A DNA stretch of 33,332 nt from an uncultured Nitrospiraceae bacterium (GTDB lineage Bacteria > Nitrospirota > Thermodesulfovibrionia > UBA6902), in the NCBI GenBank assembly GCA_964347155.1, contig CAYFXR010000149.1, positions 1-33,332 of the forward strand, given 5' to 3'. The position numbers were made by a program, and so were the translations under genes. This document shows, piece by piece, positions 1 through 22,746 of the stretch (its first letter is position 1; the number at the start of each line of letters is the position of its first letter). The notes under the pieces were generated by a model that saw nothing but the letters and a program-made list of their open reading frames with translations, did no database searches and was not told the origin of the DNA.

Positions 1-240
1 CTGGCGGGAGAGGGAAAGGGTGAGGGGGAACAAATTAATCAATCACCCCCACCTTAATCCTCCCCCGTCAAGGGGGAGGAGAATTAAGATGCCCCGCCTT
101 GTAGGCGGGGAGCTTCACTAACATGATGTTTAATCGGGAACGATTAAACAACCAAGAAAATATGTTTCGTCAATAGTCTGAACCGTTCAAACGCTTGGAA
201 CGGATGAAACGGTTTAAAACGCCTGCATTATTTGGGTTAA
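1..240 (+). repeat. Partial copy (window-truncated) of the MITE-like element family with GC-rich hairpin cassette; right terminus CTGCATTAT-TTGGGTTAA at ~221-240
   Basis: Right end matches family terminus (gcctgcattatttgggttaa). Body has G/C-stem hairpins (cctcccccgtcaagggggagg; ccccgccttgtaggcgggg) and GAACCGTTC-type mini-palindromes. Confidence 0.55.
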
Positions 241-312
241 GGATTGAAGGGGGGACTGCAAGATCATGCAGATATGTGAAAAAAATTGTATTTTTTTTGA
301 AAAGAATACAAA

Positions 313-337
313 TTTTTGAGCAATGCCTGCATAATAT
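313..337 (-). repeat. Solo terminal fragment of the repeat family (reverse orientation), abutting the aminotransferase start
   Basis: ttgagcaatgcctgcataat is the reverse complement of the family left terminus ATAATGCAGGCATTGCTCAA (cf. 31751-31775). Confidence 0.5.
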
Positions 338-340
338 GGT

Positions 341-1483
341 TTGAGGATTCTTATAGTGAAGAGAAAATTTATTGATAAGATATCACCCTTTATGGTAATG
401 GATATCCTTGCAAAGGCAAGGACAATGCCTCATGCCGTTCATATGGAAGTGGGAGAACCTGATCTTCCGCCTTCTATGAGGGTAAAAGAGGCTTATATAA
501 AAGCTGTCAGGGATAACCAATTTCATTATACTCCTGCTAAAGGACTAAAAGAATTGAGGGAAAGAATAGCGGAATATTATCAGAAGACATACAATGTTTC
601 TGTTTCACCTGAACGGATAATAATTACCCCAGGAACATCCGGGGCATTTATGGTAGTCTTTGCATTACTTACTGATATGGAAAAGAGGCTTATCCTTTCG
701 GATCCTTCGTATCCATGTTATAAGAATTTTGCCTATTTCCTTGAAACAGAACCTGTATTTTTTCCGGTTGGAAAAGATACCGATTATGAAATATTGCCTG
801 AAGCTGTTAAATCTCTTAAAGAAGTTGGTGCACTTGTCGTATCATCTCCAGCGAACCCGGTGGGTAATCTTTACAGAGAAAGAACATTGAAAGAACTGAT
901 CAGATTTTCTGAAGAAAGAGACTTCCGGTTTATATCCGACGAGATATATCACGGACTGGTTTATGATAAAAAGGAAAGCACAGCCCTCGAATTTTCTGAC
1001 AGGGTTGTTGTAATAAATAGTTTTTCAAAATTCTTCTGCATGCCGGGGTTCAGGGTAGGATGGATGATACTGCCAGAAGAGCTTGTGCGAAAGGCAGAGA
1101 TAATTGTGCAGAATATTTTTATTGCTGCCAATACACCGGCACAATATGCTGCCCTTGAGGCCTTCGACGATACCTTCCTTCTCTCTATAAGAAATACATT
1201 TAAACAGAGGAGAGACTTTCTGTATAATGAACTAAAAGATACACTTACTATTGACGTTGTGCCTGATGGTGCCTTCTACATCTGGGCTGATATCAGTAGG
1301 TATAGTAATGATTCAATGGAATTCTGTCAGAAAATTCTTGATGAAAAAGCAGTTGCAGTCACACCGGGAATTGATTTTGGTAAAAACCAGACAGAAAACT
1401 ATATAAGGTTTGCATACACTCAGGATATATCCAAGCTTAAAATAGGGATAGAACGTTTAAAAGAGTTTTTAAAGAAAGTTTAA
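341..1483 (+). CDS. Class I/II PLP-dependent aminotransferase (aspartate/aromatic aminotransferase-like)
   Basis: 380-aa ORF with SFSKxxxMxGxRxGW lysine motif and GEPD N-terminal motif. Start is a non-ATG (TTG 341 or GTG 356), because the conserved N-terminal segment KISPF precedes the first ATG at 392. Confidence 0.85.
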   Translation: MRILIVKRKFIDKISPFMVMDILAKARTMPHAVHMEVGEPDLPPSMRVKEAYIKAVRDNQFHYTPAKGLKELRERIAEYYQKTYNVSVSPERIIITPGTSGAFMVVFALLTDMEKRLILSDPSYPCYKNFAYFLETEPVFFPVGKDTDYEILPEAVKSLKEVGALVVSSPANPVGNLYRERTLKELIRFSEERDFRFISDEIYHGLVYDKKESTALEFSDRVVVINSFSKFFCMPGFRVGWMILPEELVRKAEIIVQNIFIAANTPAQYAALEAFDDTFLLSIRNTFKQRRDFLYNELKDTLTIDVVPDGAFYIWADISRYSNDSMEFCQKILDEKAVAVTPGIDFGKNQTENYIRFAYTQDISKLKIGIERLKEFLKKV

Positions 1484-1917
1484 ACTGTTTTTTTAAGATC
1501 CTCAGTCAAACTTTGAATCTTCTCTTTAATTTCATCTCTTGCTTTACGAAATGCATTCATAATTTTTTCCTCTGTCCCTGTCGTACCAACCGGGTCGTTA
1601 ATCGGCCAGTGAATCCTTTTTATCTCTGTGGGATTTACCGGGCATATTACTTCTGCATTTCCGCATAGAGTTAGTATTATATCCATGCTTTTCAACAGGT
1701 CCAATTCCATAACCTTTGAACGCTGTTTTGATATATCAATACCAATTTCTTTCATAACTTCTATTGCCCTTGGATGAACATAAAATTCAAAAAGCCCGGC
1801 ACTGTACGGTTCAATAATTTCTTTGCTAAAGTGTCGCGCAAGTCCTTCTGCAATCTGACTCCGGCAGGAATTGGCAGTGCATAGAAACATGACTTTATAT
1901 TTCTTTCTCTCTGTCAT
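1480..1917 (-). CDS. arsC: Arsenate reductase, thioredoxin-coupled LMW-PTP family (ArsC)
   Basis: 145 aa. The CTANSCRS P-loop (Cys13), TLCGNA and VICP cysteines are colinear with the Bacillus/Staphylococcus ArsC catalytic Cys triad. Overlaps the convergent aminotransferase by 4 nt. Confidence 0.8.
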   Translation of the reverse strand: MTERKKYKVMFLCTANSCRSQIAEGLARHFSKEIIEPYSAGLFEFYVHPRAIEVMKEIGIDISKQRSKVMELDLLKSMDIILTLCGNAEVICPVNPTEIKRIHWPINDPVGTTGTEEKIMNAFRKARDEIKEKIQSLTEDLKKTV

Positions 1918-2061
1918 TTAATCACAATTTTATAAAAGGTAATTTGATATCTGATGTGAGCGACCTATGCAGCCGCAATAAATGCGGCATATCGCTCTCT
2001 CGATTCGCCGGGCGAAAAGCTTGCGTTTACAATTTTTAAAAAGATCGATCAACTACATATT

Positions 2062-2243
2062 TTAACCCAAATAATGCAGACATTGCTCAATAAATTATTT
2101 AACTCGATAAATTTATTATTAAATTGTGCATATGGCTTTGAATAAACGTATTTACACTCGATCAATTAATATTGCGTTTAAGGTATCGAAAAATAATTTC
2201 TTTCACAAAGCCTGCATTATGTGAAATGCATTTTTGGGGTTAA
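2062..2243 (+). mobile_element. MITE-like element, sub-family 1, full copy (copy A)
   Basis: TIRs: TTAACCCAAATAATGCAGAC ... GCCTGCATTATGTGAAATGCATTTTTGGGGTTAA. Copies at 31743-31925 (+) and 11813-11995 (-) are >90% identical. Confidence 0.7.
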
Positions 2244-2366
2244 CGTTTTTTTGATAAAAAGATAAACAATGTATAACAAGACAATAAAAGAGTATCTATA
2301 AATTATGAAGAATACTGGCAGGGAATATAAGGAAGGAATTAATTAGTAATGGCTGGTAAGATTCGG

Positions 2367-3014
2367 TTACTTTTTACTTTTTATCTTTTCAAGCAGATCG
2401 CTTGCAAAGTCTTTATCTGATTTTTTTAAGACATTATATTCTTTTCTTGCTAAGTCTAATGACTTTTTACTTAATTCGACATAGGCAACACCAAGGTGAT
2501 AGCGGGCTTCTGCAAATGTGGGCTTAATCTTTACAGCTTTTTTATATGATTCAATAGCTTTTTCATATCTTTCCAGCTCGCTGTATATGTTACCGAGCGT
2601 AAAATACGCATTTGCATCTCTCGGTTTAAGTGTAACGGCTTTTTGAAGTGCTTTAATTGCTTCATCATTCTTGCCAAGCATGGAAGAGAGCATACCAAGT
2701 GAGTAGAGAGCATCTCCATATTTGGGATTTATTTTAACGGCGTTCTTATACGCATCATGTGCTTCTGAATACCTGTGAATGTTGAAGTATGCGTTACCAA
2801 GATGATGGTATGCCTCGGCATAATCGGGTTTTAGTTCAATGGCATGTTGAAAAGCGTCGATAGCTTCTGAATATTCTGTATTTTCACTGTTCTGGACACC
2901 GATATCAAAAAACGTCTCAGCAGAGGGTTCCTGGGCATAGAGGTCCATTGACAGAAAAGCAATTGACAGTGCTACAAGCGTTATTACTTTATAATAGTTC
3001 GATTTGAAAATCAT
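2367..3014 (-). CDS. TPR-repeat protein with N-terminal signal peptide
   Basis: Repeated 34-aa TPR units (AxxYxxLGxxYxxxxxYxxAxxxYxKA). The hydrophobic signal begins at the Met at 3014 (the ORF track extends it to 3062). Confidence 0.8.
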   Translation of the reverse strand: MIFKSNYYKVITLVALSIAFLSMDLYAQEPSAETFFDIGVQNSENTEYSEAIDAFQHAIELKPDYAEAYHHLGNAYFNIHRYSEAHDAYKNAVKINPKYGDALYSLGMLSSMLGKNDEAIKALQKAVTLKPRDANAYFTLGNIYSELERYEKAIESYKKAVKIKPTFAEARYHLGVAYVELSKKSLDLARKEYNVLKKSDKDFASDLLEKIKSKK

Positions 3015-3087
3015 AACTACCCATTTTATCAAAAAATATTTTTTTTTGTAAATAGGTGACAAAATGATAACAGGATGAAATCAATTT

Positions 3088-4092
3088 TTACCCGCCTATT
3101 TTAGACATAGCTTTTATATAGCTGGATAAAGTTATATTCTCATTGAGCAGATGCCTCTGAGGTTTTACTTTTACTGCATAGCAAAAAAGCTCGTCAATCT
3201 CGTTCTCAGTGGCTCCACTCCTCATCGGGGTTTTTATATCAACTGTTAAATCTGAAAAAAGACACGGCCTTATCTTCCCGTTGGCAGTAAGCCGGAGCCT
3301 GTTGCAATAGTTGCAGAAATGATCACTTAACGGACTGATAATTCCGATAACCCCCTTTGCCCCTTCAATCCTGAAATTTCTTGAAGGGCCTCTGCCTTTA
3401 AATTCAAGACGTTTAAGGTTGCCGAGAAATGATATTTTTTCCAGAACTTCTTCTGAACTTATGCATTTGTCTTTTGACCACATTCCGCTACACATTGCAG
3501 GCATGAACTCGATAAATCTTATGTGATATGGGTGGTTTAGAGTAAGCGATGCAAATGACCGTATCTCATCATCATTAAGACCACGTATGGGCACAACATT
3601 TATTTTTACCGGGGAGAGACCGATTTTTTCCGCCTCTCTTATGGATTTCCAGACACGATCAATATCGCCTCCATCGGTTATTTTCCTGTACCTGTCAGAA
3701 TCAAGGGTGTCGAGGCTTATGTTTACGCGGTCGAGACCGGCCCGTTTCAACATCCTGGCGAGTTTTGACAGTATAATTCCATTAGTAGTAAGGCTTAAAT
3801 CATATATGCCTATGTCTTTGATCGATGAAATCAGCTCAATGATATTCTTTCTCAGGAGAGGCTCACCACCGGTAATGCGGACTTTTCTTAAGCCTTGTTT
3901 GTAGGCAATGCGTACAAACCGCACGATCTCTTTATCTGTTAATATATCGGGTTCCTTGAAGTATCTCGGCCTCTTTGAAGGCATGCAGTAAATGCATTTA
4001 AGATTGCATTTATCCGTTATGGATATTCGGAGGTAATCTATACGGCGGTCAAAGGAATCTTTGAGAGGATATGTTTTATTTGACTGCTTCAT
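3088..4092 (-). CDS. moaA: GTP 3',8-cyclase MoaA (radical SAM, molybdenum cofactor biosynthesis)
   Basis: CNLKCIYCMP radical-SAM motif, a YLRISITDKCN N-terminus and C-terminal CxxCxxxxxxxxxxxxxC. The likely start is the ATG at 4092 (the ORF track starts at TTG 4110). Confidence 0.9.
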   Translation of the reverse strand: MKQSNKTYPLKDSFDRRIDYLRISITDKCNLKCIYCMPSKRPRYFKEPDILTDKEIVRFVRIAYKQGLRKVRITGGEPLLRKNIIELISSIKDIGIYDLSLTTNGIILSKLARMLKRAGLDRVNISLDTLDSDRYRKITDGGDIDRVWKSIREAEKIGLSPVKINVVPIRGLNDDEIRSFASLTLNHPYHIRFIEFMPAMCSGMWSKDKCISSEEVLEKISFLGNLKRLEFKGRGPSRNFRIEGAKGVIGIISPLSDHFCNYCNRLRLTANGKIRPCLFSDLTVDIKTPMRSGATENEIDELFCYAVKVKPQRHLLNENITLSSYIKAMSKIGG

Positions 4093-4176
4093 ATGCTGTT
4101 TTATTAACAACGCTTCATGTAAATTCGTTTTAACAGTTCCAGCCGTTCCAAATGTTCCAACGGATGGAACTGCTCA

Positions 4177-4201
4177 AACGGTTCAAACTGTTTGAACCGT
4201 T
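4177..4201. promoter_or_regulatory. Perfect 12-1-12 palindrome AACGGTTCAAAC-T-GTTTGAACCGTT between the moeA-like stop and moaA start
   Basis: Seen directly. Overlaps the stop codon of the upstream minus-strand gene. Related GTTCCAACGG/GGAAC half-sites lie at 4141-4170. Confidence 0.45.
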
Positions 4202-5306
4202 ATTTTCCAAACGGACAAACCGGAAAACGGCATTGATCACATTTTAAACACAGCCCTCCATGTCCGAGTTCCGCGATTTCCTTTCTACCTATCCTTTCAC
4301 CTGCAAGAACCCTTGGAAGTACTAGGTCAAATACGGTTATACTGGCGTACATGCCGCAGGCTGGTATACCAAGAATCGGGATGAGTTCAGAGTTTCGAGA
4401 AGTGAGATCCGAACTGTTAATTTTTAGATATGCTATAAGAAACATGGATCCGGGCTGAACAGGAGATCCATAATACATTTCTTCGACACCAAGATTTCTG
4501 ATCGCGAACCTTGTAACGTCATCAGGGTCAACAGACATGCCGCCTGTTGTGATAATAAGGTCTGCTCCCGTATCTATCAACTCTCTGATTCTTTCTTCGA
4601 TAAATTGAGCATCGTCAGGAGCAAAGTATACCCCGATGATTTTTCCATCTAGATGTTCTATTTTTTTTCTTATTACAGGCTCAAAGGCGTCCTTTATTTT
4701 TCCATGGTAGACTTCATTCCCTGTTATTACTACCCCTGTCTTGGGCTTTTTTATTTTTTTTACGCTTAAGACACCTCCTGCATCTACGGCTATTCTGACC
4801 GAATCCTCGACAATAGATTTTTTAACTACCAGAGGGATAGCCCTTGTTCCGGCAACAAGCTGTCCTTCTTTAACAATAGAGTTGTTATGAATCGTTGCGC
4901 ACGTAACCTCGCCGAGCAGATTGAATTCAAGGAGAGCTTTACGTTCTATTTTCAACAATCCATCTTTTTCAGCAACGAGATTTATTTTGCCTTCGTTCGG
5001 GTCTCCAGCCATTTTTACACCATCACCTGCAAGGGCCTTAGCAATTGCATATGCCGCATCGTTTTCATGCATCTCGTCTTCTTTCATCTCGAGGATAAAA
5101 AGATTTTCCTTCCCAAGTCTCTGGAGATGTTCAATATCCTTTTCTTGTATGATATGCCCTTTTTTAAACGCCCTGCCTTTGAATTCACCGGGTCTTATTT
5201 CGGTTATGTCATGTGACAATACCATTCCTACGGCTTCAGTTACGGGGACTGCCTTTGCACTGATACTTTTACTTTTATTGGTATCCATTTCTGTGATTTC
5301 ACACAT
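4200..5306 (-). CDS. MoeA/MogA-family molybdopterin-binding (MoCF biosynthesis domain) protein with C-terminal Cys cluster
   Basis: KTGVVITGNEV...TTGGMSVDPDDVT matches the MoCF_biosynth fold. The N-terminus is MoeA-like. C-terminal CLKCDQCRFPVCP. Adjacent to moaA. Confidence 0.6.
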   Translation of the reverse strand: MCEITEMDTNKSKSISAKAVPVTEAVGMVLSHDITEIRPGEFKGRAFKKGHIIQEKDIEHLQRLGKENLFILEMKEDEMHENDAAYAIAKALAGDGVKMAGDPNEGKINLVAEKDGLLKIERKALLEFNLLGEVTCATIHNNSIVKEGQLVAGTRAIPLVVKKSIVEDSVRIAVDAGGVLSVKKIKKPKTGVVITGNEVYHGKIKDAFEPVIRKKIEHLDGKIIGVYFAPDDAQFIEERIRELIDTGADLIITTGGMSVDPDDVTRFAIRNLGVEEMYYGSPVQPGSMFLIAYLKINSSDLTSRNSELIPILGIPACGMYASITVFDLVLPRVLAGERIGRKEIAELGHGGLCLKCDQCRFPVCPFGK

Positions 5307-5363
5307 GATTCCTCCATAGTTAGGTTTCCAGACTTGTACTATAATAAAGCTATCGTATCTCTT

Positions 5364-6122
5364 TTAAAACTTGATAACTTTTCTGGTTAAGAAAATAATT
5401 GCGACTATGATTACCGCCCCCAATATTTTTTCCATAGATTTTGGGGAAAATTTAAATGAACCCATAAATGAACCAACTGTCCCTCCGGCTAAAACTGCTG
5501 CTATAAGTGGAATGTAATTTGTTAAATCGATCGAATTGTATTGAAGACGGGATAGCAACCCAAAGCAGGAATTAAGCCAAATGAAAATAGCTCCACAGGC
5601 AGCGGCTTCTTTTTCAGTGCCTAACCCTAAGATTATTATTAAAGGGACAAGGTAAATACCGCCGCCAATTCCGACTATTCCTGCAAACAGACCAAGTACT
5701 GAACCGGCAATTAATGAGATGATTATTTTTCCATTTTGATTAATGTTCAGTTTGATAGTTGTGTTTTCCCAAGCGTATATTCGTAATGCCACAAAAACCA
5801 AAGATATTAATAGCATCCAGTAGAATATTTCTTTTGGTAGTCTAAGCGACCCCCCCAAATACGCCATAGGGATTGAAGATAGCAAAAAGGGCACAATAAG
5901 CTTTATCCTGGCATGCTTGTTTCGAATAAAGTTAACGCTTCCAACTGACGTAACAAATAAATTCAGTGACAATGAAATCATGGGTATTGCCAGTGAACTT
6001 ATCCCAAAGATAGCCATCAATGCAGTATAGGAGGAACCGCCACCGAGCCCCACGGAAGAATAAGTGAATGCCACAAGAAAAAATAAAAATGCTAAAACGT
6101 ATGGTGATCCAATTATTTCCAA
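5364..6122 (-). CDS. TSUP (TauE/SafE) family anion permease
   Basis: 252 aa, ~8 TM segments, duplicated G-x-G-G-G motifs (GLGGGSSY / GIGGGIYLVP). Confidence 0.8.
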   Translation of the reverse strand: MEIIGSPYVLAFLFFLVAFTYSSVGLGGGSSYTALMAIFGISSLAIPMISLSLNLFVTSVGSVNFIRNKHARIKLIVPFLLSSIPMAYLGGSLRLPKEIFYWMLLISLVFVALRIYAWENTTIKLNINQNGKIIISLIAGSVLGLFAGIVGIGGGIYLVPLIIILGLGTEKEAAACGAIFIWLNSCFGLLSRLQYNSIDLTNYIPLIAAVLAGGTVGSFMGSFKFSPKSMEKILGAVIIVAIIFLTRKVIKF

Positions 6123-6259
6123 AAGGCATGCCTCCTTACATGAGCTGTCAGATTTAAGCTATTAGCCATAAGCTAAAAAATTATGAGCTTAACGCTTATA
6201 GCCAAAAGCTGTCGTCGTAGCATCGTTGCATAACGCACCCAAAAAATTAAATTAAAAAA

Positions 6260-6601
6260 TCAACTTCTCCCGTTGCCAAATACTTCGATGAATTTCTTAT
6301 CGAGCATCTCATTCACGCCTTCTTCAAGTAGTTCATATTTCCTTAAAAATGTTTTTGCCTCTTTTGTTAATAATGCCCCGCCGCCGTGAAGCCCCCCGGC
6401 TCTTCTTTCCACAAGTCTTGTTCCGAGCCTTTGTTCCATTGTCTGTATATAACTCAGAGCCTTTCTGAATGATATATTGATGTCTTTTGCTGCCTTATTA
6501 ATTGACCCCAATTTATCAATAGCCTTCAGTAAAGCCTCCCTGCCTCTGCCGAAAACAGGTTCGCCATCAACCTCAAGCCAGATCTTTGAGCGAATCTGCA
6601 T
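6260..6601 (-). CDS. ModE-like N-terminal winged-helix regulator (molybdate-responsive regulator HTH domain only, no Mop domains)
   Basis: 113 aa. FGRGREALLKAIDKLGSINKAAKDINISFRKALSYI is the ModE N-domain signature. It lacks the C-terminal di-Mop domains of full-length ModE. Confidence 0.7.
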   Translation of the reverse strand: MQIRSKIWLEVDGEPVFGRGREALLKAIDKLGSINKAAKDINISFRKALSYIQTMEQRLGTRLVERRAGGLHGGGALLTKEAKTFLRKYELLEEGVNEMLDKKFIEVFGNGRS

Positions 6602-6712
6602 AGTATCGTTATAACATATTTGTCACAACGGTGTAAAGAAAAAAATGTCAAAATGCAATTATCGGAGGCATAGATAACTTCGAAATATTTAAAAATGCAA
6701 CATGATTACCAG

Positions 6713-6781
6713 ATGCCATTTTGCAATCGATAAAAATTTTTTACATACATTTATACTGTTATGATTGCAAAATGGCATGTT
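6713..6781. promoter_or_regulatory. 15-bp inverted repeat TGCCATTTTGCAATC ...37 nt... GATTGCAAAATGGCA upstream of the modE-like gene
   Basis: Seen directly. Located in the 285-bp gap between the fmdE-like and modE-like genes. Confidence 0.4.
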
Positions 6782-6886
6782 TAAAGGAGTTGCTTTTAAA
6801 GCTTTTTTCAGGTATCTATGCCTGTTATTTGCATAGGGAAATGACGTAAAAGAACAAAGAAACTGCGGAAATGTGGGACTGCTGTA

Positions 6887-7489
6887 CTATGGCGATTTAT
6901 AATAGGATCCCTGGGCACAGGCTTTACAGAAAAGTCTGCCGTTTACATTGACATCCCTCTTGTCCTGGACGTATTCACCACATTTTTCGCATTTAATTCT
7001 CCGAACGGGCCTTCCGGGCATATCCTCTTCAGGTACTTCAACGCTTACATTTGTCCATTCGAATAATTCGTTATCAGGCATGATCTTATAAGCTTCAAGC
7101 TGGCATTTATATTTATCTTCAATATCTGGAAAATAATTTTTTGCCTTGTCTTTGGATTCCTCTTTCGCAAGAATTCTTACCGCTTTTCCTGTTTTCAGAT
7201 TTGCATAAGTAGCTGCCATCTTTCCGAAATCAAGAAATTTTAACGACCTTTTACCCAGGCTGCAGCCGGTAACGGACTGTATTGCATCGGTAGCGCACCG
7301 GTCTATTTCAACATACACAATGAGCTTCTTTCTATCCTGCCCCTTTGGATCATTTATCCCTATCAACTCAAGTCCTAAAATGCTCATCCTTACACCAAGG
7401 ACCTGTCCAGGGCAAAGATGTCCATGTGTTTTTACTGATTCCTCGAGGAGTCTCTCAAAACCGAGTTTATCTAACATCTCATATTCCAT
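6887..7489 (-). CDS. FmdE/FwdE-domain protein with C-terminal zinc ribbon
   Basis: HGHLCPGQVLGVRM motif characteristic of the FmdE family. C-terminal CEKCGEY...CKAC. Confidence 0.75.
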   Translation of the reverse strand: MEYEMLDKLGFERLLEESVKTHGHLCPGQVLGVRMSILGLELIGINDPKGQDRKKLIVYVEIDRCATDAIQSVTGCSLGKRSLKFLDFGKMAATYANLKTGKAVRILAKEESKDKAKNYFPDIEDKYKCQLEAYKIMPDNELFEWTNVSVEVPEEDMPGRPVRRIKCEKCGEYVQDKRDVNVNGRLFCKACAQGSYYKSP

Positions 7490-7611
7490 CTCCTATTTTT
7501 ATCCAACCTGCAAATTTTCTTTTACTTATTTCAATGTATAGTACCTGCTTTGCTTCAAAAAAGCCAATCCAAATCCACCTTCAATTTTCTATGATTTTGT
7601 ACCTACTTCCT

Positions 7612-7825
7612 TTACCCAGAAAATGCATTTTAAATAATGCAGGCTTTGGAAGAAAATTTATTTATCGATACATTAGACGCAATTCCAACCAATCTAAGGT
7701 GAATATTTTTATTCCAAGCTATATGCATGATTTAATAGTAAATCCATCCCGTAAAATATTTACTATTTACGGGATAAATCGAATTAAATAAATTTTATTA
7801 CAATGTCTGCATTATTTAAGTTTAA
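7612..7825 (-). mobile_element. MITE-like element, sub-family 2 (copy B), with extra internal hairpin CCCGTAAA..TTTACGGG
   Basis: Reverse complement aligns along its length with 10164-10343. Termini TTACCCAGAAAATGCATTTTAAATAATGCAGG and CAATGTCTGCATTAT. Confidence 0.65.
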
Positions 7826-7899: not shown

Positions 7900-8754
7900 A
7901 TGTTTAAACTCAGTATATTCCTTATAGCATTTCTAATACTTTTCATTAGTACAAATATATCATATGCTAAGGAAAAGGAGATTATCTTTGCCATTTCGCC
8001 AATGGCATCTCCTGTTTCCACTCTCTCTTATTACAATGATTTTATAAGATATCTTTCTAAAAAGACAGGTCTAATGATCATTCCTAAACAGAGGAGAACC
8101 TACGCTGAGATTAACTCCCTTTTAAAGAAGGGCGAAGCAGAGTTCGCCTATACGTGCACCGGGGCTTACATAAGAGGCAATTTTGACTTCGGACTTGAAC
8201 TCCTTGCCGTGCCAGTCATAAATGGCAAGACAAGCTATCATTCATACATAATTGTAAACAAAGAAAGCAAGATCGAGATCTTCTCCGGGCTTCGAGGAAG
8301 GGTCTTTGCCTTTACAGACCCGCTCTCATTGACAGGGAGACTGTACATCATACATCTCCTTGATACAATGGGTCTCATACCGGAGGAATTTTTTGAAAAG
8401 ACTTTTTACACATCAAGTCATGAAAAATCAATACAATCTGTGGCAAATGGACTTGCAGATGGGGCGGCAGTTGACAGTCTTATTTTTGACGATATGAAGA
8501 GAAAACATGCCCCGTCCACAAGCAATGTAAGAATTATAAAGATTTCACCGCCTTACGGCATACCTCCGGTTGTGGCGTCTCCTGTTGCGGAAAAATCAAC
8601 CAAGCAGCTTATATTAAAGACCCTTATTAAGATGGCAGAGGATACAACCGGAAGGGAGATTCTCCAGGGAATCCATATTGAAAAATTTATTATTCCTGAC
8701 CCTGCTATTTATAAGACTGCGGCAGAAGTGAGGGAGGCAACATTTCTACGGTGA
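7900..8754 (+). CDS. PhnD/SsuA-family periplasmic solute-binding protein (sensor-associated, AioX/ArxX-like)
   Basis: Signal peptide. PhnD-like fold motifs. Single mature Cys in FAYTCTGAY. A strong SD (AGAGGGGAA) precedes the ATG. Overlaps the kinase start (GTGA). Confidence 0.8.
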   Translation: MFKLSIFLIAFLILFISTNISYAKEKEIIFAISPMASPVSTLSYYNDFIRYLSKKTGLMIIPKQRRTYAEINSLLKKGEAEFAYTCTGAYIRGNFDFGLELLAVPVINGKTSYHSYIIVNKESKIEIFSGLRGRVFAFTDPLSLTGRLYIIHLLDTMGLIPEEFFEKTFYTSSHEKSIQSVANGLADGAAVDSLIFDDMKRKHAPSTSNVRIIKISPPYGIPPVVASPVAEKSTKQLILKTLIKMAEDTTGREILQGIHIEKFIIPDPAIYKTAAEVREATFLR

Positions 8755-10175
8755 GATTAGGAAAAATCTACAACAGCATAGCATTTCGCATCTCTATCTC
8801 CATTGCCGTTGTAGTGGCTGCTACAACGATGGGTGTGAGTTGGCTGCTGCTGAGAGAAGAAAGAAAAACACTGGAACTTGAACTTCGTAGCAAGGGAATG
8901 TACCTTGCAAATACAATGTCCCACCATATCATCGAACCATTCCTTTATGAGGAACGGCATGAAATATTCTCTCTTCTCAAAGCATCTATGATTGACGAAG
9001 AGAGTCTTGTGGTGCATGCCGAGGTCTATGACAAGAATAGAGAATTGATTGTTACAGCAGACAAGGATGAAAAGTGGCAAACAATAAAGTTTCAGCCGCT
9101 TAACTTTGAAGATTCACTAGAGGATATTATTATCGAGGAAGACAATATCTTGCCAATTTATCATATATCTTTACCTCTTAAAGTAGAAGCACTTGGAACT
9201 ATTGGATTTATCAGGCTGTGCATAACAAAAGAATACCTTTATAAGACCCTTGGAAATGTAAAACAGAAGCTTTATCTTCTGTCAGCAGCCGTTATCTTTA
9301 TCGGCATAATGCTGGGACTCTGGATGGCAAGAAAAATTTTAAGACCAATACTTATTCTTAATAAAGGGGTAAAAATGGTTGGTGAAGGAGGGCCGGGTGT
9401 TGAGATACCTGTAGTTGGAGAGGGCGAGATAAAAGAGCTGGCACTTTCTTTTAACAGAATGTCCGAGAAATTGAAAGAACAGATTGAGGTGATAAAGACC
9501 GCTCAGGAAAATCTTATAAGGACAGAGAAACTCTATGCCGTTGGAGAATTCTCTGCAGGAATTGCACATGAAATAAAGAACCCTCTTACATCCATCAAAA
9601 TGCTTATGCAGACTACACGATACAAAAAAAAGGCACTGTCCGACAGAGATTTTGAGATTATTGAGGGAGAGATAAACAGGATAGATCGTATCGTAAAAGA
9701 GTTTCTTGCTTTTGCAAGACCTGAAAAGATTGAAAAGACAGATATAAGTATAAATGATGTCCTTGAAGAAGTTATTACATTGACCGAGCCAAAGATGAAA
9801 CAAACTACCATACAACTTGAACAGATGTTTTCTCCCAACCTGCCGATGATCAAGGGAAATCTTGATGGTCTCAAACAGGTTTTTCTCAATATTGTTCTTA
9901 ATGCCTTACAAGCAATGAATGGTGGTGGCACACTGGGTATAGAGACATCAAAGAATAAAGATATGCTGTCAGTTGTAATAAGAGACACCGGCGCTGGGAT
10001 TCCAAAACAGGATTTAAAAAGAATTTTTGACCCTTTCTTTACAACAAAAGAGGAAGGAACCGGTATGGGACTGGCTCTAACGTATAAAATAGTGAATGAC
10101 CACTCTGGCAAGATTGATATAGATTCGACTACATCCGGTACAACGGTAAAAGTGGATTTGCCCTTACCCGAATAA
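8751..10175 (+). CDS. Sensor histidine kinase (2 TM, periplasmic domain, HAMP, HisKA, HATPase_c)
   Basis: HEIKNPLTSI H-box and N/G1/G2 boxes (DTGAGIP, GTGMGLAL). GTG start overlaps the upstream stop. Confidence 0.85.
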   Translation: MRLGKIYNSIAFRISISIAVVVAATTMGVSWLLLREERKTLELELRSKGMYLANTMSHHIIEPFLYEERHEIFSLLKASMIDEESLVVHAEVYDKNRELIVTADKDEKWQTIKFQPLNFEDSLEDIIIEEDNILPIYHISLPLKVEALGTIGFIRLCITKEYLYKTLGNVKQKLYLLSAAVIFIGIMLGLWMARKILRPILILNKGVKMVGEGGPGVEIPVVGEGEIKELALSFNRMSEKLKEQIEVIKTAQENLIRTEKLYAVGEFSAGIAHEIKNPLTSIKMLMQTTRYKKKALSDRDFEIIEGEINRIDRIVKEFLAFARPEKIEKTDISINDVLEEVITLTEPKMKQTTIQLEQMFSPNLPMIKGNLDGLKQVFLNIVLNALQAMNGGGTLGIETSKNKDMLSVVIRDTGAGIPKQDLKRIFDPFFTTKEEGTGMGLALTYKIVNDHSGKIDIDSTTSGTTVKVDLPLPE

Positions 10176-10343
10176 TGCAGACATTGTAATAAAATTTATT
10201 TAATTCGATGGATTTATTATTAAATTATGCATATAGCTTGGAACAAACATATTCACCTTTGATTGGCTGGAATTGCGTCAAAGGTATCGAGAAATAGATT
10301 TTCTTCCAACGCCTGCATTATGTGAAATGCATTTTTTGGGTTT
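10164..10343 (+). mobile_element. MITE-like element, sub-family 2 (copy C), wedged exactly between kinase and sigma54-regulator genes
   Basis: Left TIR TTACCCGAATAATGCAGAC encodes the kinase's last codons L-P-E-stop. Right end ...AAATGCATTTTTTGGGTTT immediately precedes ATG 10344. Confidence 0.7.
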
Positions 10344-11750
10344 ATGAATACACTTCTTATTATAGATGACGAAAAAGCAGTGAGATACTCCTTTAAAAGG
10401 ATGTTTGAAGATGAATACAGGGTTTTAACTGCTGAGGACGGTGTATCGGCTCTGAATATTCTCGATACCAGCTATATTGGTGTTGACGTCATTTTCCTTG
10501 ATGTCAGAATGCCTGGCATGGGGGGGATAGAGGTGCTTAAAAAGATTAAGGAGATAACAAAGAACATTCCTGTTGTAGTAATGACGGCATTTGGCGATTC
10601 TGATACTGCTATTGAAGCTATGAAAGAAGGGGCGTTTGATTACCTTACAAAGCCTTTAGAGGGTAACCAGCTAAAAGATGTTATTGAAAAGGCGCTTGCA
10701 TCGGCACGGCTTCAGCAAGATGCTTCCTGTTGTGGAACGATAGAAGAACTCTCGGATAAGGAAGAGACAATTGTGGGAAAAACTCAGTCAATTCTTGATG
10801 TTTGTAAGATGATCGGTCAGGTTGCAAACACAGATGTGCCTGTGCTCGTAACAGGAGAAAGTGGTGTAGGAAAGGAGTTAGTGGCACGGGCAATATACAA
10901 CCACGGTAGTAGAAAAGGTAGACCTTTTATGGCTGTTAATTGTGCTGCACTTCTTGAGGGTGTGGTAGAGAACGAATTATTTGGTTCAGAGAAAGGGGCA
11001 TTCACGGGCGCTGACAAGAGGAGAATAGGAAGGTTCGAACAGTGTGACGGGGGTACTATCTTCCTTGATGAGATCGGAGATATGAGTATTCCAACTCAAG
11101 CTAAATTACTCAGGGTACTCCAGGATGGTAGCTTCGAGCGTATCGGAAGCAATGAGACAATAAAGACAAATGTGCGTATCATTGCTGCCAGTAATAAAAG
11201 TCTCCACGACGAGGTAAGGAACGGCAGGTTCAGAGAAGACCTGTTTCACAGACTCAATGTTTTTTCCATACACATTCCTGCGCTCAGAGAAAGAATGGAA
11301 GATATTCCGTTGCTCTCAGATTACTTCCTCTCAAGGGCGGTCAGGGATACGGATAAAAAGATCACGGGATTTTCACATGACGTAATTAAACGTTTTATGT
11401 CATATAACTGGCCGGGCAATGTGAGAGAGCTTGAAAATACCATAAAACGGGCTGTGGTAATTACTACTGGAGAGGTTCTTGGTGTGAATGATGTTATTTT
11501 AAATGCTGAGTCATGTACAAAAGAGTTTCAAGAGCTTTCTGTGGTAATTGACGGTTTATTTGAAAGGACGATTAACACGCAAGCCCCTTCAGACAGTTAT
11601 CACTCTATCCTCTCACGTGTGGAAAAATGTCTTATTGAAAAGGCACTAAATGTAACAAAGGGGAATCAGGTACAGGCATCTGCACTACTCGGTATTACAA
11701 GAGTCACATTAAGAAAAAAGATGCAAGAGTTCAAAATCCCGTCTGTATAG
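10344..11750 (+). CDS. Sigma-54-dependent response regulator (REC + AAA+ sigma54-activator + Fis-type HTH), NtrC/AioR-like
   Basis: Receiver Asp (FLDVRMPGMGG), Walker A GESGVGKE, GAFTGA motif, C-terminal HTH. Confidence 0.9.
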   Translation: MNTLLIIDDEKAVRYSFKRMFEDEYRVLTAEDGVSALNILDTSYIGVDVIFLDVRMPGMGGIEVLKKIKEITKNIPVVVMTAFGDSDTAIEAMKEGAFDYLTKPLEGNQLKDVIEKALASARLQQDASCCGTIEELSDKEETIVGKTQSILDVCKMIGQVANTDVPVLVTGESGVGKELVARAIYNHGSRKGRPFMAVNCAALLEGVVENELFGSEKGAFTGADKRRIGRFEQCDGGTIFLDEIGDMSIPTQAKLLRVLQDGSFERIGSNETIKTNVRIIAASNKSLHDEVRNGRFREDLFHRLNVFSIHIPALRERMEDIPLLSDYFLSRAVRDTDKKITGFSHDVIKRFMSYNWPGNVRELENTIKRAVVITTGEVLGVNDVILNAESCTKEFQELSVVIDGLFERTINTQAPSDSYHSILSRVEKCLIEKALNVTKGNQVQASALLGITRVTLRKKMQEFKIPSV

Positions 11751-11812
11751 GAAATGCACAGCCTTTATGCATACTTTTGATCATTTTATATAACTCACTC
11801 CTGATTAAATCC

Positions 11813-11995
11813 TTTAAACCAAAAAATGCATTTCACATAATGCAGGCTTTGTGAAAGAAATTATTTTTCGATACCATAAACGCAATATTAATTGATCGAA
11901 TGTAAATACTTTTATTCGAAGCCATATGCACAATGTAATAATAAATGTATCGAGTTAAATAATTTATTGAGCAATGTCTGCATTATGTAGGTTAA
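11813..11995 (-). mobile_element. MITE-like element, sub-family 1 (copy D), inverted relative to copy C, so the two flank the regulator gene
   Basis: Reverse complement ~90% identical to 2062-2243. Confidence 0.7.
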
Positions 11996-18983: not shown

Positions 18984-19856
18984 ATGAGTAAGATAAATAC
19001 TGTAACTGTATCCCGCCGCGATGTGCTCAAGACAGGCAGCGCTGTTGTTGCGGCTGCTGCTACAACAACAGGCCTTGTGCCAGATGTAGCAGAGGCTGCA
19101 AAAAAGAAAAAGAAAAAACTTGCCCGCTGGGCTATGGTAGTTGACCTCAGGAGATGCATTGGCTGCAGGGGATGCTGCATTGCAGACAAGGCAGAATATG
19201 GAGCTGCACTCGGAAGGTATAACACGGTTGTCAAGAATGTAGAGTACGGCAAATATCCTGCTCCCCAAAAGCATTTCCTTCCTCGTCTGTGTAACCACTG
19301 TGCAGGCGACCCATCAAAAGAATGGCAGGTCCCGCCATGTGTTGAGGTATGTCCCGAAGCAAAAAGCGGAGAGAGGAAGAAAATGGGGAATGAAAGATAC
19401 AGGACAGGCGCTACGTATAAGCGACCTGACGGGATGATTTTGATAGATCCCAACCTCTGTATCGGCTGTTACAAATGTGTTGATGCATGTCCGTATGGAG
19501 TGCGCTCTCCTGACCCTAATGTAAAGCTTACCAGGCCTGACAGGGAAAAGGATATCGGAGTGGGTAAATGTACGTTCTGCCGGCATCGTGTCGATAAGGG
19601 AATTACGACTTCATGTACGAATACCTGTCAGGGCATGGCAAGGAATTTCGGTGATCTGAACGACAAAAAAAGCAAGGTCTATAAACTTGCCAAGGAATTT
19701 AAATTGCTCGAAAACAGGGACAAGTCAACCCTGCTTCCGGAAGAAAAGACTATGCCTCACGTATTTTATATAGACCCGGATGGTGTGTTAGCGCACTACA
19801 ATAAGAAAATTACAAAAGAGACAAAATTGCGGGAGTTTACATCCTGGTTTGAATAA
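18984..19856 (+). CDS. TAT-exported 4x[4Fe-4S] ferredoxin subunit partner of the molybdopterin enzyme (PsrB/ArrB/DmsB-like)
   Basis: SRRDVLK TAT motif after ATG 18984 (SD AAAGGAGG). Four Cys clusters. The ORF-track GTG 18936 extension is unlikely. Confidence 0.85.
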   Translation: MSKINTVTVSRRDVLKTGSAVVAAAATTTGLVPDVAEAAKKKKKKLARWAMVVDLRRCIGCRGCCIADKAEYGAALGRYNTVVKNVEYGKYPAPQKHFLPRLCNHCAGDPSKEWQVPPCVEVCPEAKSGERKKMGNERYRTGATYKRPDGMILIDPNLCIGCYKCVDACPYGVRSPDPNVKLTRPDREKDIGVGKCTFCRHRVDKGITTSCTNTCQGMARNFGDLNDKKSKVYKLAKEFKLLENRDKSTLLPEEKTMPHVFYIDPDGVLAHYNKKITKETKLREFTSWFE

Positions 19857-19889
19857 TGAATAACGAAAATACAGAAAGGAGGAAATAAA

Positions 19890-22373
19890 ATGGCTAATGT
19901 AACACGACGAAATTTCATACAGCTGGGCATCGCAAGCGGAGCCCTCCTTGCTGCCGGAGAAGGTATTGTATTCCCTGCTTTAGCTGGTGCAGTAAAGTTA
20001 GATAAAGGCGGCAAGGATTTCAACTTTAAGACGGATGCAGAGAGAACAGCCATTCCAACTGCATGCTGGTCATGTTTTACCAGGTGTGCGGCTATCGGTT
20101 TTGTGGAGGATGGCAAGCTTGTTAAAATCGAATCCAATCCTAATTCTATCAGAACCGAGGGCAAAATGTGTGCAAAAGGACAGTCAGGTCCCAACGATAT
20201 CTATTTCCCGGACAGGATACTCTATCCAATGAAACGTGCAGGCAAACGCGGTGAGGGTAAATGGAAGAGGATTTCCTGGGATGAGGCTATTACAGAATTA
20301 TCAGGACGGCTAAAAAAGCTCCGTGACGACGGTAATCCAGAGAAATTCATGTTCCACTATGGCATGATGGAGGCAAGTTCTAGAAAACTGATGAAAAACG
20401 TTTTCCTTGATACGTACGGCACAGGGACGATAGGAAACCATACCTCTACAAGCACGAGCGCAAAAAAGACAGCGCAGGAACTGACGTGGGGCGAGTTCTT
20501 CGATAACTGGGACTTTGACAATACCAAGTTTGTCATGAATTTTGGAAGTAACGTGCAGGAGGCCCATATCAATCATGTACCTTGCTCAAACAGGCTGATA
20601 AAGGCAAGGGTTGAAAACGGTGTAAAGAGTGTTACCTTTGATGTGAGATTTTCAAATACCGCGGCAAAGTCAACTGAATGGATACCAATCAAACCGGGAA
20701 CCGATGGAGCAGTTGCCCTCGCTATGTGTAATGTGATAATGCAAAACGATCTTTATGACAAGGATTTCTTTACATTCATCAGGGCTAAGGAGAATGTCAA
20801 TCTCTCTATAGACGAAAAGGTATCTGCTTTGAAATCTCACCTCTCCCGATATACACCTCAATGGGCGGAAAAAGTAAGCGGTGTGAGCGCCGCTAAGATC
20901 GAATCTCTCGCAAAAGAATTCGCAAAGACAAAGCCTGCAGTAGTAATCAGCTTTAGAGGGGCAATAGCCCATTACAACGGTGTCGAAAACGAACGTGCTA
21001 TCCAGATGCTTGCTGCAATAACAGGCAACATTGATAACCCAGGCGGAAGATGCAGAGGTGTGCGAGCCAGATGGGAATATCCAAAGGGGCCGAAAGATAA
21101 ACCGGAGACAAAGAGACTGGATATAATTGACGGCAAAGGCGCAGCCCTACCGACTCACAACATGGGACACCAGGTATTTAAGATGATCAAGGAAGGCGGT
21201 AATGGAAGACCTGAAGTATACATGTGGTACTGCTATAACCCTGTGTATGTGAACGGCGAAAGCACGGAGAATGCAGAGGTTCTGAAAGACGAAAAGATGA
21301 TCCCCTTTACAGTGGCTTCAACTATTGTCTATGACGAATCGAGCAAACTCGCTGATTTGATCCTGCCTGATGCCACCTATCTCGAAAGATGGGACTGGGA
21401 AGACAATGTCTCCCCCACTCAGATTCCAGAATACTATATCCGACAGCCCCTGGTAAAGCCGCTTGGGGAGGCCAGGGATTTTGGAGACGTGGTGATTGAG
21501 ATTGCAGAGAAAATGGGCATGCCTTTAGGTGTTGGCAGTTCTAAAGAGGAGTTTGTAAGGAAATCCTGCGAGATGACTCCCGGTGTAAAGGAGGCAGGCG
21601 GCTTTGAGTACATGAAGAAGCAGGGTGTGTGGCATGACCCGAATGAAAAACCTCGTTATCATCTATACAGGGAAGAAGTAAAGACTGACGGTGCAATTCT
21701 TGATGAAGCAACGGGCGTATACTGGAGAGGAAAAGCAGGTGAAGATTACACCAAGACCAGAAATGCATACAGACAGTATGTTGGCCAGAAAATAGGAGAC
21801 AAGGTCTACAGAGGCTTTTATCCTGACAAGCTCAATAAGACTGGTTACTTTGAGCTTTACTCCGCGCTTATGAAAGAAAAGGGCTTTGACCCTCTTCCAA
21901 CCTGGATGCCGATACCTGAGCATGAGAACATGAAGCCTGATGAGCTGATTCTTGCTACCTATAAAGTCGCCATTCATATCCTCTCAAGGAGTTCACACCG
22001 TAAATGGCTAAGCGAGGTTTACCATGACAATCCAGGATGGATCAATCCTAAAACCGCAGCTACACGGGGTATCAATGATGGAGACAAAATCAAGGTTAAA
22101 TCAAGAGTCGGAGAGATTATAACCAGAGCACGTGTTACCGAAAAGGTTATTCCCGGAGTCATAGCCATCTCCTTTCATGCAGGACGCGAGGAAAGCGGAA
22201 GATACGGATCAGGCAATAAGTCACCGGAGGCACATGATAATGACCCGGATCTCCAGAACAAGTTCTGGGATACATATGGTGTAAATTCAAACAGGATTAT
22301 CCCCAACTCTTCTGACCCAATAAGTGGCCAGCTGTGCTGTATGGATACGGTTGTAACAGTGACAAAAGCATAG
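19890..22373 (+). CDS. TAT-exported molybdopterin oxidoreductase catalytic subunit, Psr/Phs/Ttr/Arr clade of the DMSO-reductase family
   Basis: TRRNFIQLG TAT signal. N-terminal CxxCxxxC...C [4Fe-4S] motif (CWSCFTRC...MCAKG). RISWDEAI and FGSNVQEAH family motifs. 827 aa. SD AAGGAGGA. Confidence 0.85.
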   Translation: MANVTRRNFIQLGIASGALLAAGEGIVFPALAGAVKLDKGGKDFNFKTDAERTAIPTACWSCFTRCAAIGFVEDGKLVKIESNPNSIRTEGKMCAKGQSGPNDIYFPDRILYPMKRAGKRGEGKWKRISWDEAITELSGRLKKLRDDGNPEKFMFHYGMMEASSRKLMKNVFLDTYGTGTIGNHTSTSTSAKKTAQELTWGEFFDNWDFDNTKFVMNFGSNVQEAHINHVPCSNRLIKARVENGVKSVTFDVRFSNTAAKSTEWIPIKPGTDGAVALAMCNVIMQNDLYDKDFFTFIRAKENVNLSIDEKVSALKSHLSRYTPQWAEKVSGVSAAKIESLAKEFAKTKPAVVISFRGAIAHYNGVENERAIQMLAAITGNIDNPGGRCRGVRARWEYPKGPKDKPETKRLDIIDGKGAALPTHNMGHQVFKMIKEGGNGRPEVYMWYCYNPVYVNGESTENAEVLKDEKMIPFTVASTIVYDESSKLADLILPDATYLERWDWEDNVSPTQIPEYYIRQPLVKPLGEARDFGDVVIEIAEKMGMPLGVGSSKEEFVRKSCEMTPGVKEAGGFEYMKKQGVWHDPNEKPRYHLYREEVKTDGAILDEATGVYWRGKAGEDYTKTRNAYRQYVGQKIGDKVYRGFYPDKLNKTGYFELYSALMKEKGFDPLPTWMPIPEHENMKPDELILATYKVAIHILSRSSHRKWLSEVYHDNPGWINPKTAATRGINDGDKIKVKSRVGEIITRARVTEKVIPGVIAISFHAGREESGRYGSGNKSPEAHDNDPDLQNKFWDTYGVNSNRIIPNSSDPISGQLCCMDTVVTVTKA

Positions 22374-22462
22374 GATTACTCCAAACAATGGGCATTAAAG
22401 AGAAGGAGTTAAAGATTGTTATCAAAATATGCATACACGTCAGTGGAGGACAAATTTAACAA

Positions 22463-22746
22463 TTAACTCAAATAATGCAGAGTCGATTCGACCTCAAAAA
22501 TACCCGTCATACCTCCCCCTTTGGAAAAGGGGGATTTAGGGGGATTTTATAATGATAACGTCCTATAAATCCCCCCTCTCCCCGTATAGGGGCGTTGCAT
22601 CAACGGCGAAAAGCCGCGTTGCGGCCTCGCCGCTTTACGCGGGGCTTTACGCCCCACTTTAATAAAGTGGGGGAAATATATAATTAATATTGCGTTTAAG
22701 GTATCGTCCCGACACATCGGGACATTATTTAAAATGCATTTTTGGG
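22463..22746 (+). mobile_element. MITE-like element (copy E) carrying a ~185-bp GC-rich multi-hairpin cassette
   Basis: Family termini TTAACTCAAATAATGCAGAG ... TTAAGGTATCG...AAAATGCATTTTTGGGCT. Internal hairpins: CCCCCTTTGGAAAAGGGGG; GGGGGATTTTATAATGATAACGTCCTATAAATCCCCC; CCCCACTTTAATAAAGTGGGGG. Confidence 0.65.

Follow-up and report, generated by a model that had tools for sequence, protein, structure and literature searches.

A small hairpin module proposed for the GC-rich intergenic cassettes of a Thermodesulfovibrionia contig

Two cassettes of strong GC-rich hairpins lie in intergenic DNA of an uncultured Nitrospirota bacterium (Thermodesulfovibrionia), which raises the question of whether they are insertions in the AT-rich repeat around them, copies of one mobile cassette, or structures with a role of their own. 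The DNA analyzed (the window) is the complete 33,332-bp contig CAYFXR010000149.1. One cassette (S, 1-125) is located at the start of the window, where it is cut by the contig end, as repeats typically are; the other (22496-22680) belongs to E, the cassette and repeat copy around 22463-22751, between the genes of a molybdenum (Mo) enzyme catalytic subunit and a TorD-like chaperone. A further repeat copy with stems is copy F (24209-24345). An earlier note, made from the letters of the window, regarded the cassettes as secondary insertions resembling repetitive extragenic palindromic (REP) elements, or as structured RNA modules, nested in an AT-rich element. The best explanation takes each cassette for a short array built from a single small hairpin module, distinct from the AT-rich host repeat; a probability of about 0.55 is given to this explanation as a whole, including the RNA-level role proposed for the stems.

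Repeats were counted in about 49 kb of sequence from the same organism, comprising the contig and short metagenome contigs (L005, L006 and L008 among them). The loci L010, L011, L012, L017, L040 and L045 are Mo/TorD loci of relatives.

Hairpin clusters, their module and the AT-rich host

All of the stems listed in the earlier note could be found at or beside the positions given for them (Table 1), and copy F indeed carries a different stem, which is private to it. The palindrome GTCCCGA-N4-TCGGGAC, which occurs at 22706-22723 and again at 24251-24268, had been overlooked. Perfect GC-rich hairpins (stem at least 7, at least 5 GC pairs, loop 3-12) number 7 in the contig against 1.17 +/- 0.97 (maximum 4) in 60 shuffles that keep the local composition, and 7/7 are located within three intergenic elements (1-125, 22512-22723 and 24251-24334). 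RNA folding, a check proposed in the earlier note, gave z = -6.3 for 22463-22751; for 1-240, z was -4.8. Among 1661 sliding windows of 120 nt, the ten with the highest stability are all in 1-160 or 22501-22740, with -44 to -55 kcal/mol against a mean of -22 (sd 6.4). The GC content is 56% in cassette 1-125, 51% in cassette 22496-22680 and 40% in the contig; the canonical host copies have 27%, in agreement with the approximately 28% ascribed to the surrounding element. Copy E is identical base for base in the independent metagenome contig JABAOH010100313.1, and is therefore not an assembly artefact. The clustering of the GC hairpins is beyond chance.

The basic unit of these clusters is a two-tier hairpin: AAATCCCCCC, 2-3 nt, CCCCCCTTT, a loop, AAAGGGGGG, 3-5 nt, and GGGGGATTT. 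Half forms lack one outer run, the F form being a hairpin with a second G-run and the R form an outer C-run with a hairpin. The F form reads C-run, loop, G-run, 2-11 nt, second G-run and ATTT; the R form is its reverse complement. Both window cassettes have the same order (F, AT spacer, R, GC linker hairpin or hairpins), with the linker hairpins extending over 92-110 in S and 22593-22673 in E. In each cassette, F and R are joined by pairing between their spare runs, G in F and C in R (22539-22551 with 22564-22577 in E; 18-28 with 44-53 in S, where the second G-run GGGTGAGGGGG pairs in the predicted fold). The motif at 6-28 is common to L005, and the R module at 22564-22592 is identical to L005 361-377 at 16/17 positions. 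The AAAGTGGGG arm at 22652-22672 is a variant that many phage copies have; in the window, the 5' arm compensates with an A. No second copy of either cassette was obtained by BLAST against the window and 55 loci, and E and S could not be aligned as wholes; the two are not copies of one mobile cassette.

The host repeat is about 185 bp long, AT-rich and without coding capacity. Its ends, TTAACCCAAATAATGCAG... and ...CTGCATTAT...TTTGGGGTTAA (right end ...GCCTGCATTATGTGAAATGCATTTTTGGGGTTAA), are inverted repeats, and TTAA flanks both sides of most copies; in L008, a minimal derivative and a full copy share one TTAA. At least 15 copies are present in the approximately 49 kb; counting fragments, there are eight in the window and another eight in short metagenome contigs, several of which end inside the repeat. 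A host 25-mer matched 8 short metagenome contigs and had 0 matches in the genome contigs scanned; the element was also absent from about 480 kb of related genomes. Neither an empty site nor a parent insertion sequence (IS) was found, and there is no transposase, Y1 type included, among the open reading frames (ORFs) of the window. Small size, lack of coding capacity, terminal inverted repeats, TTAA flanks and many copies are all features of a miniature inverted-repeat transposable element (MITE), and the AT-rich host is a lineage-specific, TTAA-flanked MITE.

Some copies of the MITE closely adjoin genes. For example, copy C fills the entire gap between a histidine kinase gene (8751-10175) and a sigma-54 response regulator gene (10344-11750); its left end contains the kinase stop codon TAA (10173-10175), and the regulator ATG is at its right end. 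The right end AAATGCATTTTTGGGG faces a nearby start codon in 6/8 MITE copies (242, 7605, 10344, 22751, 24209 and 31925), which hints that it supplies a 5' leader or promoter, the count being too small for significance. The GCCTGCAT in the host was considered as a sigma-54 promoter and rejected by eye, since no GG is present at -24.

The canonical host copies have no GC stems. Copy B differs from its sister copy C by a clean hairpin indel, and in the host variant of L005 a GC hairpin is inserted at AAGGTA^TCGAAAA. The mini-hairpin TCCCGA-N4-TCGGGA was found 3 times in the same-organism DNA, against 0.03 expected per window; all 3 sit in the host right arm and are joined at different host positions. 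These comparisons show that the stems are secondary relative to the canonical MITE copies, and to this extent the nested insertions proposed in the earlier note are borne out. Nesting within a single element is not secure for copy E, because its left arm is of the L005 subfamily (TCGATTCGACCTCAA), its right arm has the canonical 25-mer, and about 83 nt of the canonical core is missing. Either recombination has replaced the core of copy E, or copy E consists of older sequence between two MITE fragments. The modules have probably gathered in mosaic intergenic regions with whole and broken MITE copies, where they sit inside a MITE core or between MITE fragments.

Other observations were made on these mosaic regions. 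The near-perfect 18-bp palindrome GTCCCGAT/ATCGGGAC (22706-22723 and 24251-24268; also L005 1856-1871) is located 30-50 nt upstream of the start codons of the TorD-like and multihaem cytochrome genes; it could be a putative protein-binding site rather than an RNA stem. A search for the mini-hairpin followed by ATTAT in IMG/VR returned one match, in an unrelated high-GC phage. At L005 1455-1850, next to an E-type MITE variant, 400 nt of non-coding DNA contain long GC hairpins of very high stability (z = -5.2) and motifs of the GTCATTCC...GGAATGAC type; this represents another mosaic intergenic region of the same organism.

Alternatively, copy E might be an older, module-bearing Mo/TorD spacer bracketed by two independent and later truncated MITE insertions; the hairpins would then be ancestral and the MITE pieces newcomers. 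A module or strong hairpin is present at the orthologous junction in MITE-free relatives (L012, L040, L010, L011, L017 and L045), and the two E arms belong to different host subfamilies. MITE fragments and solo ends are common here, the L005 modules lie outside MITEs, and the 3' flank of the E module resembles flanks in L017 and L011. However, two insertions and two truncations are required, and the E arms are in the correct order and orientation for one element, with TTAA at the left and TGAA at the right. Moreover, the similarity to the hairpins of relatives is not above that to the unrelated L005 locus, and a 262-nt ancestral spacer with six stems would exceed that of any relative. An ancestral origin of the hairpins in copy E is therefore only tentatively entertained.

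The module beyond the host element

Besides E (twice) and S, the pattern CCCC-N4-14-GGGG-N2-12-GGGGG matched only L005, an Acinetobacter plasmid and, in the relatives L012 and L040, the Mo/TorD junction; in 100 shuffles it gave 0 matches. The L005 module (366-395) belongs to the same organism and is outside any MITE, the relatives L012 and L040 lack the host, and further copies are found in other phyla; the hairpin motif is thus independent of the host element, and the earlier suggestion of a smaller repeat family distinct from it holds. There are 4-5 module copies in the same-organism DNA in addition to the 3 mini-hairpins, and a consensus exists.

Over 35 nt (22514-22548), the E module shares 91% identity with the spacer that follows a CoA-transferase gene on the Acinetobacter plasmid. 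An exact match to its 21-mer AAGGGGGATTTAGGGGGATTT was found at 12 loci of IMG/VR, and single contigs have up to 7 copies; these occupy short spacers between co-directional genes, often from the stop codon to before the ribosome-binding site, and are sometimes in tandem. Full elements have the form AAATCCCCCC-TAA-[CCCCCCTTT..AAAGGGGGG]-linker-[AAGTCCCCCTTT..AAAGGGGGATTT]-A-GGGGGATT, in which the linker, like that of the window cassettes, may include an GGCGGCGAAGCCGCC hairpin. They lie between co-directional genes, both in plasmids of cyanobacteria and Acinetobacter and in contigs of Mu-like and other phages. A consensus of 82 nt matched 44 plasmids, including those of Nostoc, Synechocystis, Leptolyngbya, Planktothrix, Pseudanabaena (nifU-nifH) and Acinetobacter (between a CoA-transferase B gene and pcaF), with partial matches in Clostridium, and also matched the Haemophilus phage SuMu. 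The module was found in none of 5,426 E. coli genomes. The R-half pattern revealed about 38 further phage copies in IMG/VR, including closed two-tier hairpins and the AAAGTGGGG arm variant; several of them begin at or a few bases from a stop codon read in the sequence.

Two points on the phage contigs may be added. The phage-like contig 3300035670_001258 (23.6 kb; L063, L071) has seven module copies, some of which form head-to-tail tandems; its Neisseria DNA uptake sequence GCCGTCTGAA suggests a host among the Neisseriaceae. The R-half search was dominated by 82 phage contigs (L077-L196) sharing the conserved sequence ...CCCAATCCCCCCTTACCCCCCTTTCCCTCTTCCCCAT... with no hairpin partner, which are unrelated and were set aside.

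For 12 full elements, RNAalifold gave a three-way junction in which a G.U pair is invariant and several U.G wobbles occur. A covariance model (R1), built from these 12 non-Nitrospirota elements only, was run over 553 kb. Its top ranks were L005 (27.7 bits, E = 1.5e-4), window E (25.1 bits, 8e-4), L057, the L012 junction (2.5e-3) and window S (19.6 bits over 56-115, 0.03), followed by the junction hairpins of L011, L040, L045, L017 and L010; no match fell in window coding sequence. At the gathering score, Rfam had 0 matches in the window, 0 in the same-organism contigs and none in the foreign full elements, and at E <= 10 the window gave only hairpin-like chance matches. The 16-mer core of the module is printed in no paper of the literature searched. 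The window modules have the features of the cross-phylum module (C-run, loop and G-run, a second run 2-11 nt away, and an AAAT/ATTT tail), as half elements only. Judged by sequence, the module occurs between genes of Nitrospirota, cyanobacteria, Acinetobacter, and Mu-like and other phages, and has no Rfam family.

Tentatively, the cassettes may be regarded as the local representatives of a cross-phylum family of modular RNA/DNA elements of about 35-95 nt that is not yet catalogued and comprises a two-tier hairpin, its half forms and a three-way-junction form. Phages and plasmids might carry such elements horizontally; the elements would settle in intergenic DNA, MITE cores included, and be retained because they set differential mRNA stability or termination between operon genes. 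The near letter-for-letter presence of an uncatalogued 35-nt module in Nitrospirota, cyanobacteria, Acinetobacter, and Mu-like and other phages is unexpected. If these copies form one family, it would be a compact candidate either for an intercistronic signal of wide occurrence that governs stability or termination, or for a mobile element of very small size. In annotations, the module also gives rise to spurious short ORFs.

The cross-phylum likeness might instead be convergence. The modules would then be ordinary intrinsic terminators or attenuators with repeated local origins, C-run/G-run stems being the simplest of strong hairpins, and a duplicated arm would supply the second run. The sequence is low in complexity, most copies lie just after stop codons and before ribosome-binding sites, the L011 junction hairpin is followed by a T-run, and GGGGGATTT-A-GGGGGATTT resembles a 10-nt tandem duplication. 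However, details outside the stems are common across phyla: AAGT precedes the stem with its invariant G.U, the spacer reads ATTTA, and the outer run is AAATCCCCCC-TAA/TAG. The many copies per phage contig, tandem arrays included, the lack of copies in E. coli, and the lack of a real U-tract in most copies also make convergence unlikely.

The Mo-subunit/TorD junction and the proposed role

Copy E belongs to an operon of conserved gene order (Fe-S, NrfD, two multihaem cytochromes, Fe-S, Mo-subunit, chaperone). Synteny of the two genes that flank it extends over about 40 loci, and the closest relatives of the window Mo-enzyme have 84-86% amino-acid identity. Among these loci, the spacer between the Mo-subunit and chaperone genes is 25-40 nt and unstructured in most other phyla. 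It is 78-170 nt in the Nitrospirota relatives, structured with z <= -3 in 6/7 of those scored, and 381 nt in the window, with 6-7 stems compared with 1-2 in relatives. A strong perfect hairpin, the strongest of its locus, directly follows the Mo-subunit stop codon in 7/9 relative loci; the sequence is different each time, and the style is alike (ATCCCC...GGGGAT). In local alignments of E to the spacers of relatives, only L012 was significant against shuffles, and this is no proof of orthology, because the alignment was no better than that to an unrelated locus.

The earlier note had suggested that the stems between these genes act as transcription attenuators or mRNA stabilisers. A role at this junction is plausible in view of the structured spacers and retained hairpins of the relatives; a classical attenuator is disfavoured, because most stems have no U-tract. 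Only GTCCCGAcacaTCGGGAC-ATTATTT passed a lenient terminator scan, the other stems being followed by ATTTAGG, CTCTCC or GAAATA, and the stems as a whole do not qualify as intrinsic terminators. They do have the properties of a protective structure, namely stability, a place between operon genes, and a position conserved in relatives. The likeliest role would be that of an intercistronic RNA hairpin which protects the 3' end or leaks termination. The stems would be transcribed within the Mo-enzyme operon and act at the RNA level, where they may block 3'-to-5' exonucleases, terminate weakly, or both. The upstream structural-gene message would then outlast or outnumber the downstream chaperone message, as in the malE-malF model, and unequal expression of enzyme and chaperone is predicted. 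The repeat mosaic also accounts for the contig breaks at these places, and for the 381-nt length of one spacer in a respiratory Mo-enzyme operon that is tight elsewhere. As a separate observation, the TorD-like gene and a convergent multihaem cytochrome gene have stop codons 7 nt apart (23408-23416), with no terminator between them.

Several findings weigh against the module and the role proposed for it. The stems are almost invariant C/G runs and covariation support is weak; low complexity inflates the similarity scores, and the R1 E-values (1e-4 to 3e-2) are rough and modest. The window modules match as half elements in permuted order, and a terminator-like tail is present on the mini-hairpin only. 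Both strands fold about equally well, and the element is antisense to neighbour genes in three cyanobacterial plasmids, so that RNA-level action in one orientation is not established. Finally, cassette 1-125 is probably not intercistronic, because in relatives a divergent gene precedes the aminotransferase and no hairpins occur in the spacer; the relatives have a divergent promoter region without stems at the position of S. Searches via the aminotransferase and the phosphatase found no exact record extending upstream of position 1, and no tRNA or tmRNA genes were detected in the window.

The equal stability of the two strands also fits a DNA-level role or none, in which the palindromes would be protein sites of the nucleoid, gyrase or transposase type, formers of G-quadruplexes or cruciforms, or neutral selfish sequences in dispensable MITE cores. 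They are perfect Watson-Crick palindromes, GGGGGATTT recurs with a 10-nt phase and is present once in inverted orientation, and some cyanobacterial plasmid copies are antisense to their neighbours. In addition, positions 6-28 (GGGAGAGGGAAAGGGTGAGGGGG) contain four G-tracts with 3-nt loops, a canonical G-quadruplex motif at the contig edge. However, the G.U and U.G wobbles of the 12 full elements hold only on the R-to-F strand, copies consistently lie between co-directional genes and abut stop codons, and the junction hairpin is retained across relatives despite sequence turnover. A role on DNA, or none at all, is considered unlikely.

A REPIN-type origin (REP doublets forming hairpins) would have the element mobilised by a Y1 transposase, either a REP-associated tyrosine transposase (RAYT) or an IS200-like enzyme, and inserted as a unit into the MITE core. 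The F and R modules are inverted and fold together in both cassettes, as in bacterial interspersed mosaic elements (BIMEs) and REPINs, and REP dimers nested in longer palindromes have been documented (PMC3733652). The contig L006 of the same organism also has an IS200/IS605-family transposase gene (100-720) with an in-frame TAG and CCACC...GGTGG end hairpins (CCACCCC...GGGGTGG), which abuts a truncated host MITE. However, REP elements are defined by an unpaired GTAG or CGTC tag at one stem end (PMC3733652), and no consistent tag was found beside the window stems, whose flanks are CTTAA/GAATT, AAGATG/AGCTTC, CATACC/TTTAGG and GGTATC/ATTAT; the GTAG in hairpin 92-110 lies in the loop. No RAYT was detected among the window ORFs and a few same-organism contigs, the only Y1 transposase being the L006 protein, which scored 148 bits as IS200 and only 23.7 bits as RAYT (cut-off 80). 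The IS200 ends were rejected as the source of the stems, with no similarity beyond style, and the cassettes are not copies of each other. The cassettes are hence not REP-like in the strict sense, and mobilisation of this kind is improbable.

The contig is rich in molybdenum genes (3088-7489 and 24510-25697), including moaA, MoCF-type, FmdE and a MOT1-family molybdate transporter. A dedicated structured RNA in the spacer, such as a molybdenum cofactor (Moco) riboswitch or a small RNA, would suit this neighbourhood and the very stable fold, but it is highly improbable given the Rfam results, by which a Moco riboswitch was rejected, the likeness of the two cassettes in architecture and not in sequence, and the same modules beside unrelated genes in other phyla.

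Table 1. Coordinates of repeat elements, hairpins and genes in the window
Coordinates	Strand	Feature	Remark
6-28	+	F-type module, 3' part: G-run GGGAGAGGG, AAA, second G-run GGGTGAGGGGG	cut by contig start
44-80	+	R-type module: outer C-run CACCCCCACC, TTAAT, hairpin CCTCCCCC/gtcaa/GGGGGAGG	pattern match 46-76
58-80		hairpin TCCTCCCCC/gtcaa/GGGGGAGGA	
92-110		GC linker hairpin CCCCGCCT/tgt/AGGCGGGG	position like GGCGGCGAAGCCGCC hairpin of phage copies
126-242	+	divergent right MITE arm of start copy, ending GCCTGCATTATTTGGGTTAA	repeat families D2, D6
322-345		second end-like piece near start copy	
2058-2247	+	canonical host MITE copy A	27% GC
7605-7822	-	host MITE copy B	
7747-7778	-	32-nt hairpin insertion CCCGTAAA...TTTACGGG in copy B versus sister copy C	GAT-flanked
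10160-10344	+	host MITE copy C	
11808-11990	-	host MITE copy	
19890-22373	+	molybdopterin oxidoreductase catalytic subunit gene	Pfam
22463-22511	+	left MITE arm of copy E: TTAACTCAAATAATGCAGAG plus TCGATTCGACCTCAA...	subfamily of L005 1820-1990; 15/15 match
22512-22551	+	F-type module CCTCCCCCTTTggaAAAGGGGGATTTAGGGGGATTTTATA	pattern match 22515-22543
22514-22534		hairpin TCCCCCTTT/gga/AAAGGGGGA	
22539-22575		stem GGGGGATTT...AAATCCCCC	
22564-22592	+	R-type module TATAAATCCCCCC-TCT-CCCC/gtata/GGGG	pattern match 22572-22592, minus strand
22593-22651		GC-rich linker hairpins (GTTG/catc/AACG; GGCGAAAAGCCGCGTTGCGGCCTCGCCGCTTTACGCGGGGC)	analogous to phage-copy linker hairpins
22652-22673		hairpin CCCCACTTT/aat/AAAGTGGGG(G)	model R1 partial match
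22682-22751	+	right MITE arm of copy E, end ATTATTTAAAATGCATTTTTGGGCTGAA	25-mer identical to canonical copies; repeat families D7, D4
22706-22723		mini-hairpin GTCCCGAcacaTCGGGAC in copy E right arm	
about 22755-23408	+	TorD/NarJ-type chaperone gene	Pfam
24209-24345	-	copy F: right MITE arm with mini-hairpin (24251-24268) and private stem	no left end
24303-24334		copy F private 10-bp stem ACGTGTCCGT...ACGGACACGT	
31743-31925	+	host MITE copy	
32179-32207		host solo end	

Comparison with known repeat systems

The REP, BIME and REPIN elements of E. coli, Pseudomonas and others (PMC3733652, Di Nocera 2013; PMC3116915, Bertels & Rainey 2011) are similar to the module in several ways. They too are short, GC-rich palindromes, their intergenic sites are mostly downstream of genes or between co-directional genes, and they occur as single units, as inverted pairs folding into larger hairpins, or as mosaics with linker motifs. 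REP elements are also thought to stabilise upstream mRNA, and in Anabaena variabilis REP dimers are nested in longer AT-rich palindromes (PMC3733652). Unlike REP, the module has no unpaired GTAG/CGTC tag, no RAYT in the sequence searched, and no copies in E. coli; it is a two-tier C-run/G-run hairpin with half and three-way-junction forms, near-identical across phyla and phages.

The small dispersed repeats (SDRs) of the Nostocaceae, reportedly described by Elhai et al. in 2008, are said to be very small mobile repeats in stable stem-loops, nested in other repeats and restricted to the Nostocaceae. They would thus resemble the module, which is also common in cyanobacteria, and are possible relatives of it; the module differs in being cross-phylum.

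The mosaic intergenic regions of Neisseria, with dRS3/RS repeats and Correia MITEs (PMC3733652), likewise have small palindromic repeats interleaved with MITEs. The Correia elements are like the host MITE in their small size, inverted-repeat ends, and location between or at the ends of genes; whereas their sequences are different, and the host target is TTAA rather than TA. The yeast mitochondrial GC clusters and the repetitive hairpin elements of sponge mitochondria (PMC4478555, PMC2800124) are also GC palindromic mini-elements that invade AT-rich intergenic DNA and show nesting; these are organellar and unrelated in sequence, and serve as an analogy only.

Protective intercistronic 3' structures are conserved between species, and several in series are possible (PMC5927463, Dar & Sorek 2018). 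The malE-malF class is defined by decay data, whereas the window stems are known from sequence and predicted folds; the window also has 6-7 stems where relatives have 1-2. The likeness to this class is in the arrangement: a stable stem-loop between two operon genes, downstream of the gene of the more abundant product, at a conserved position.

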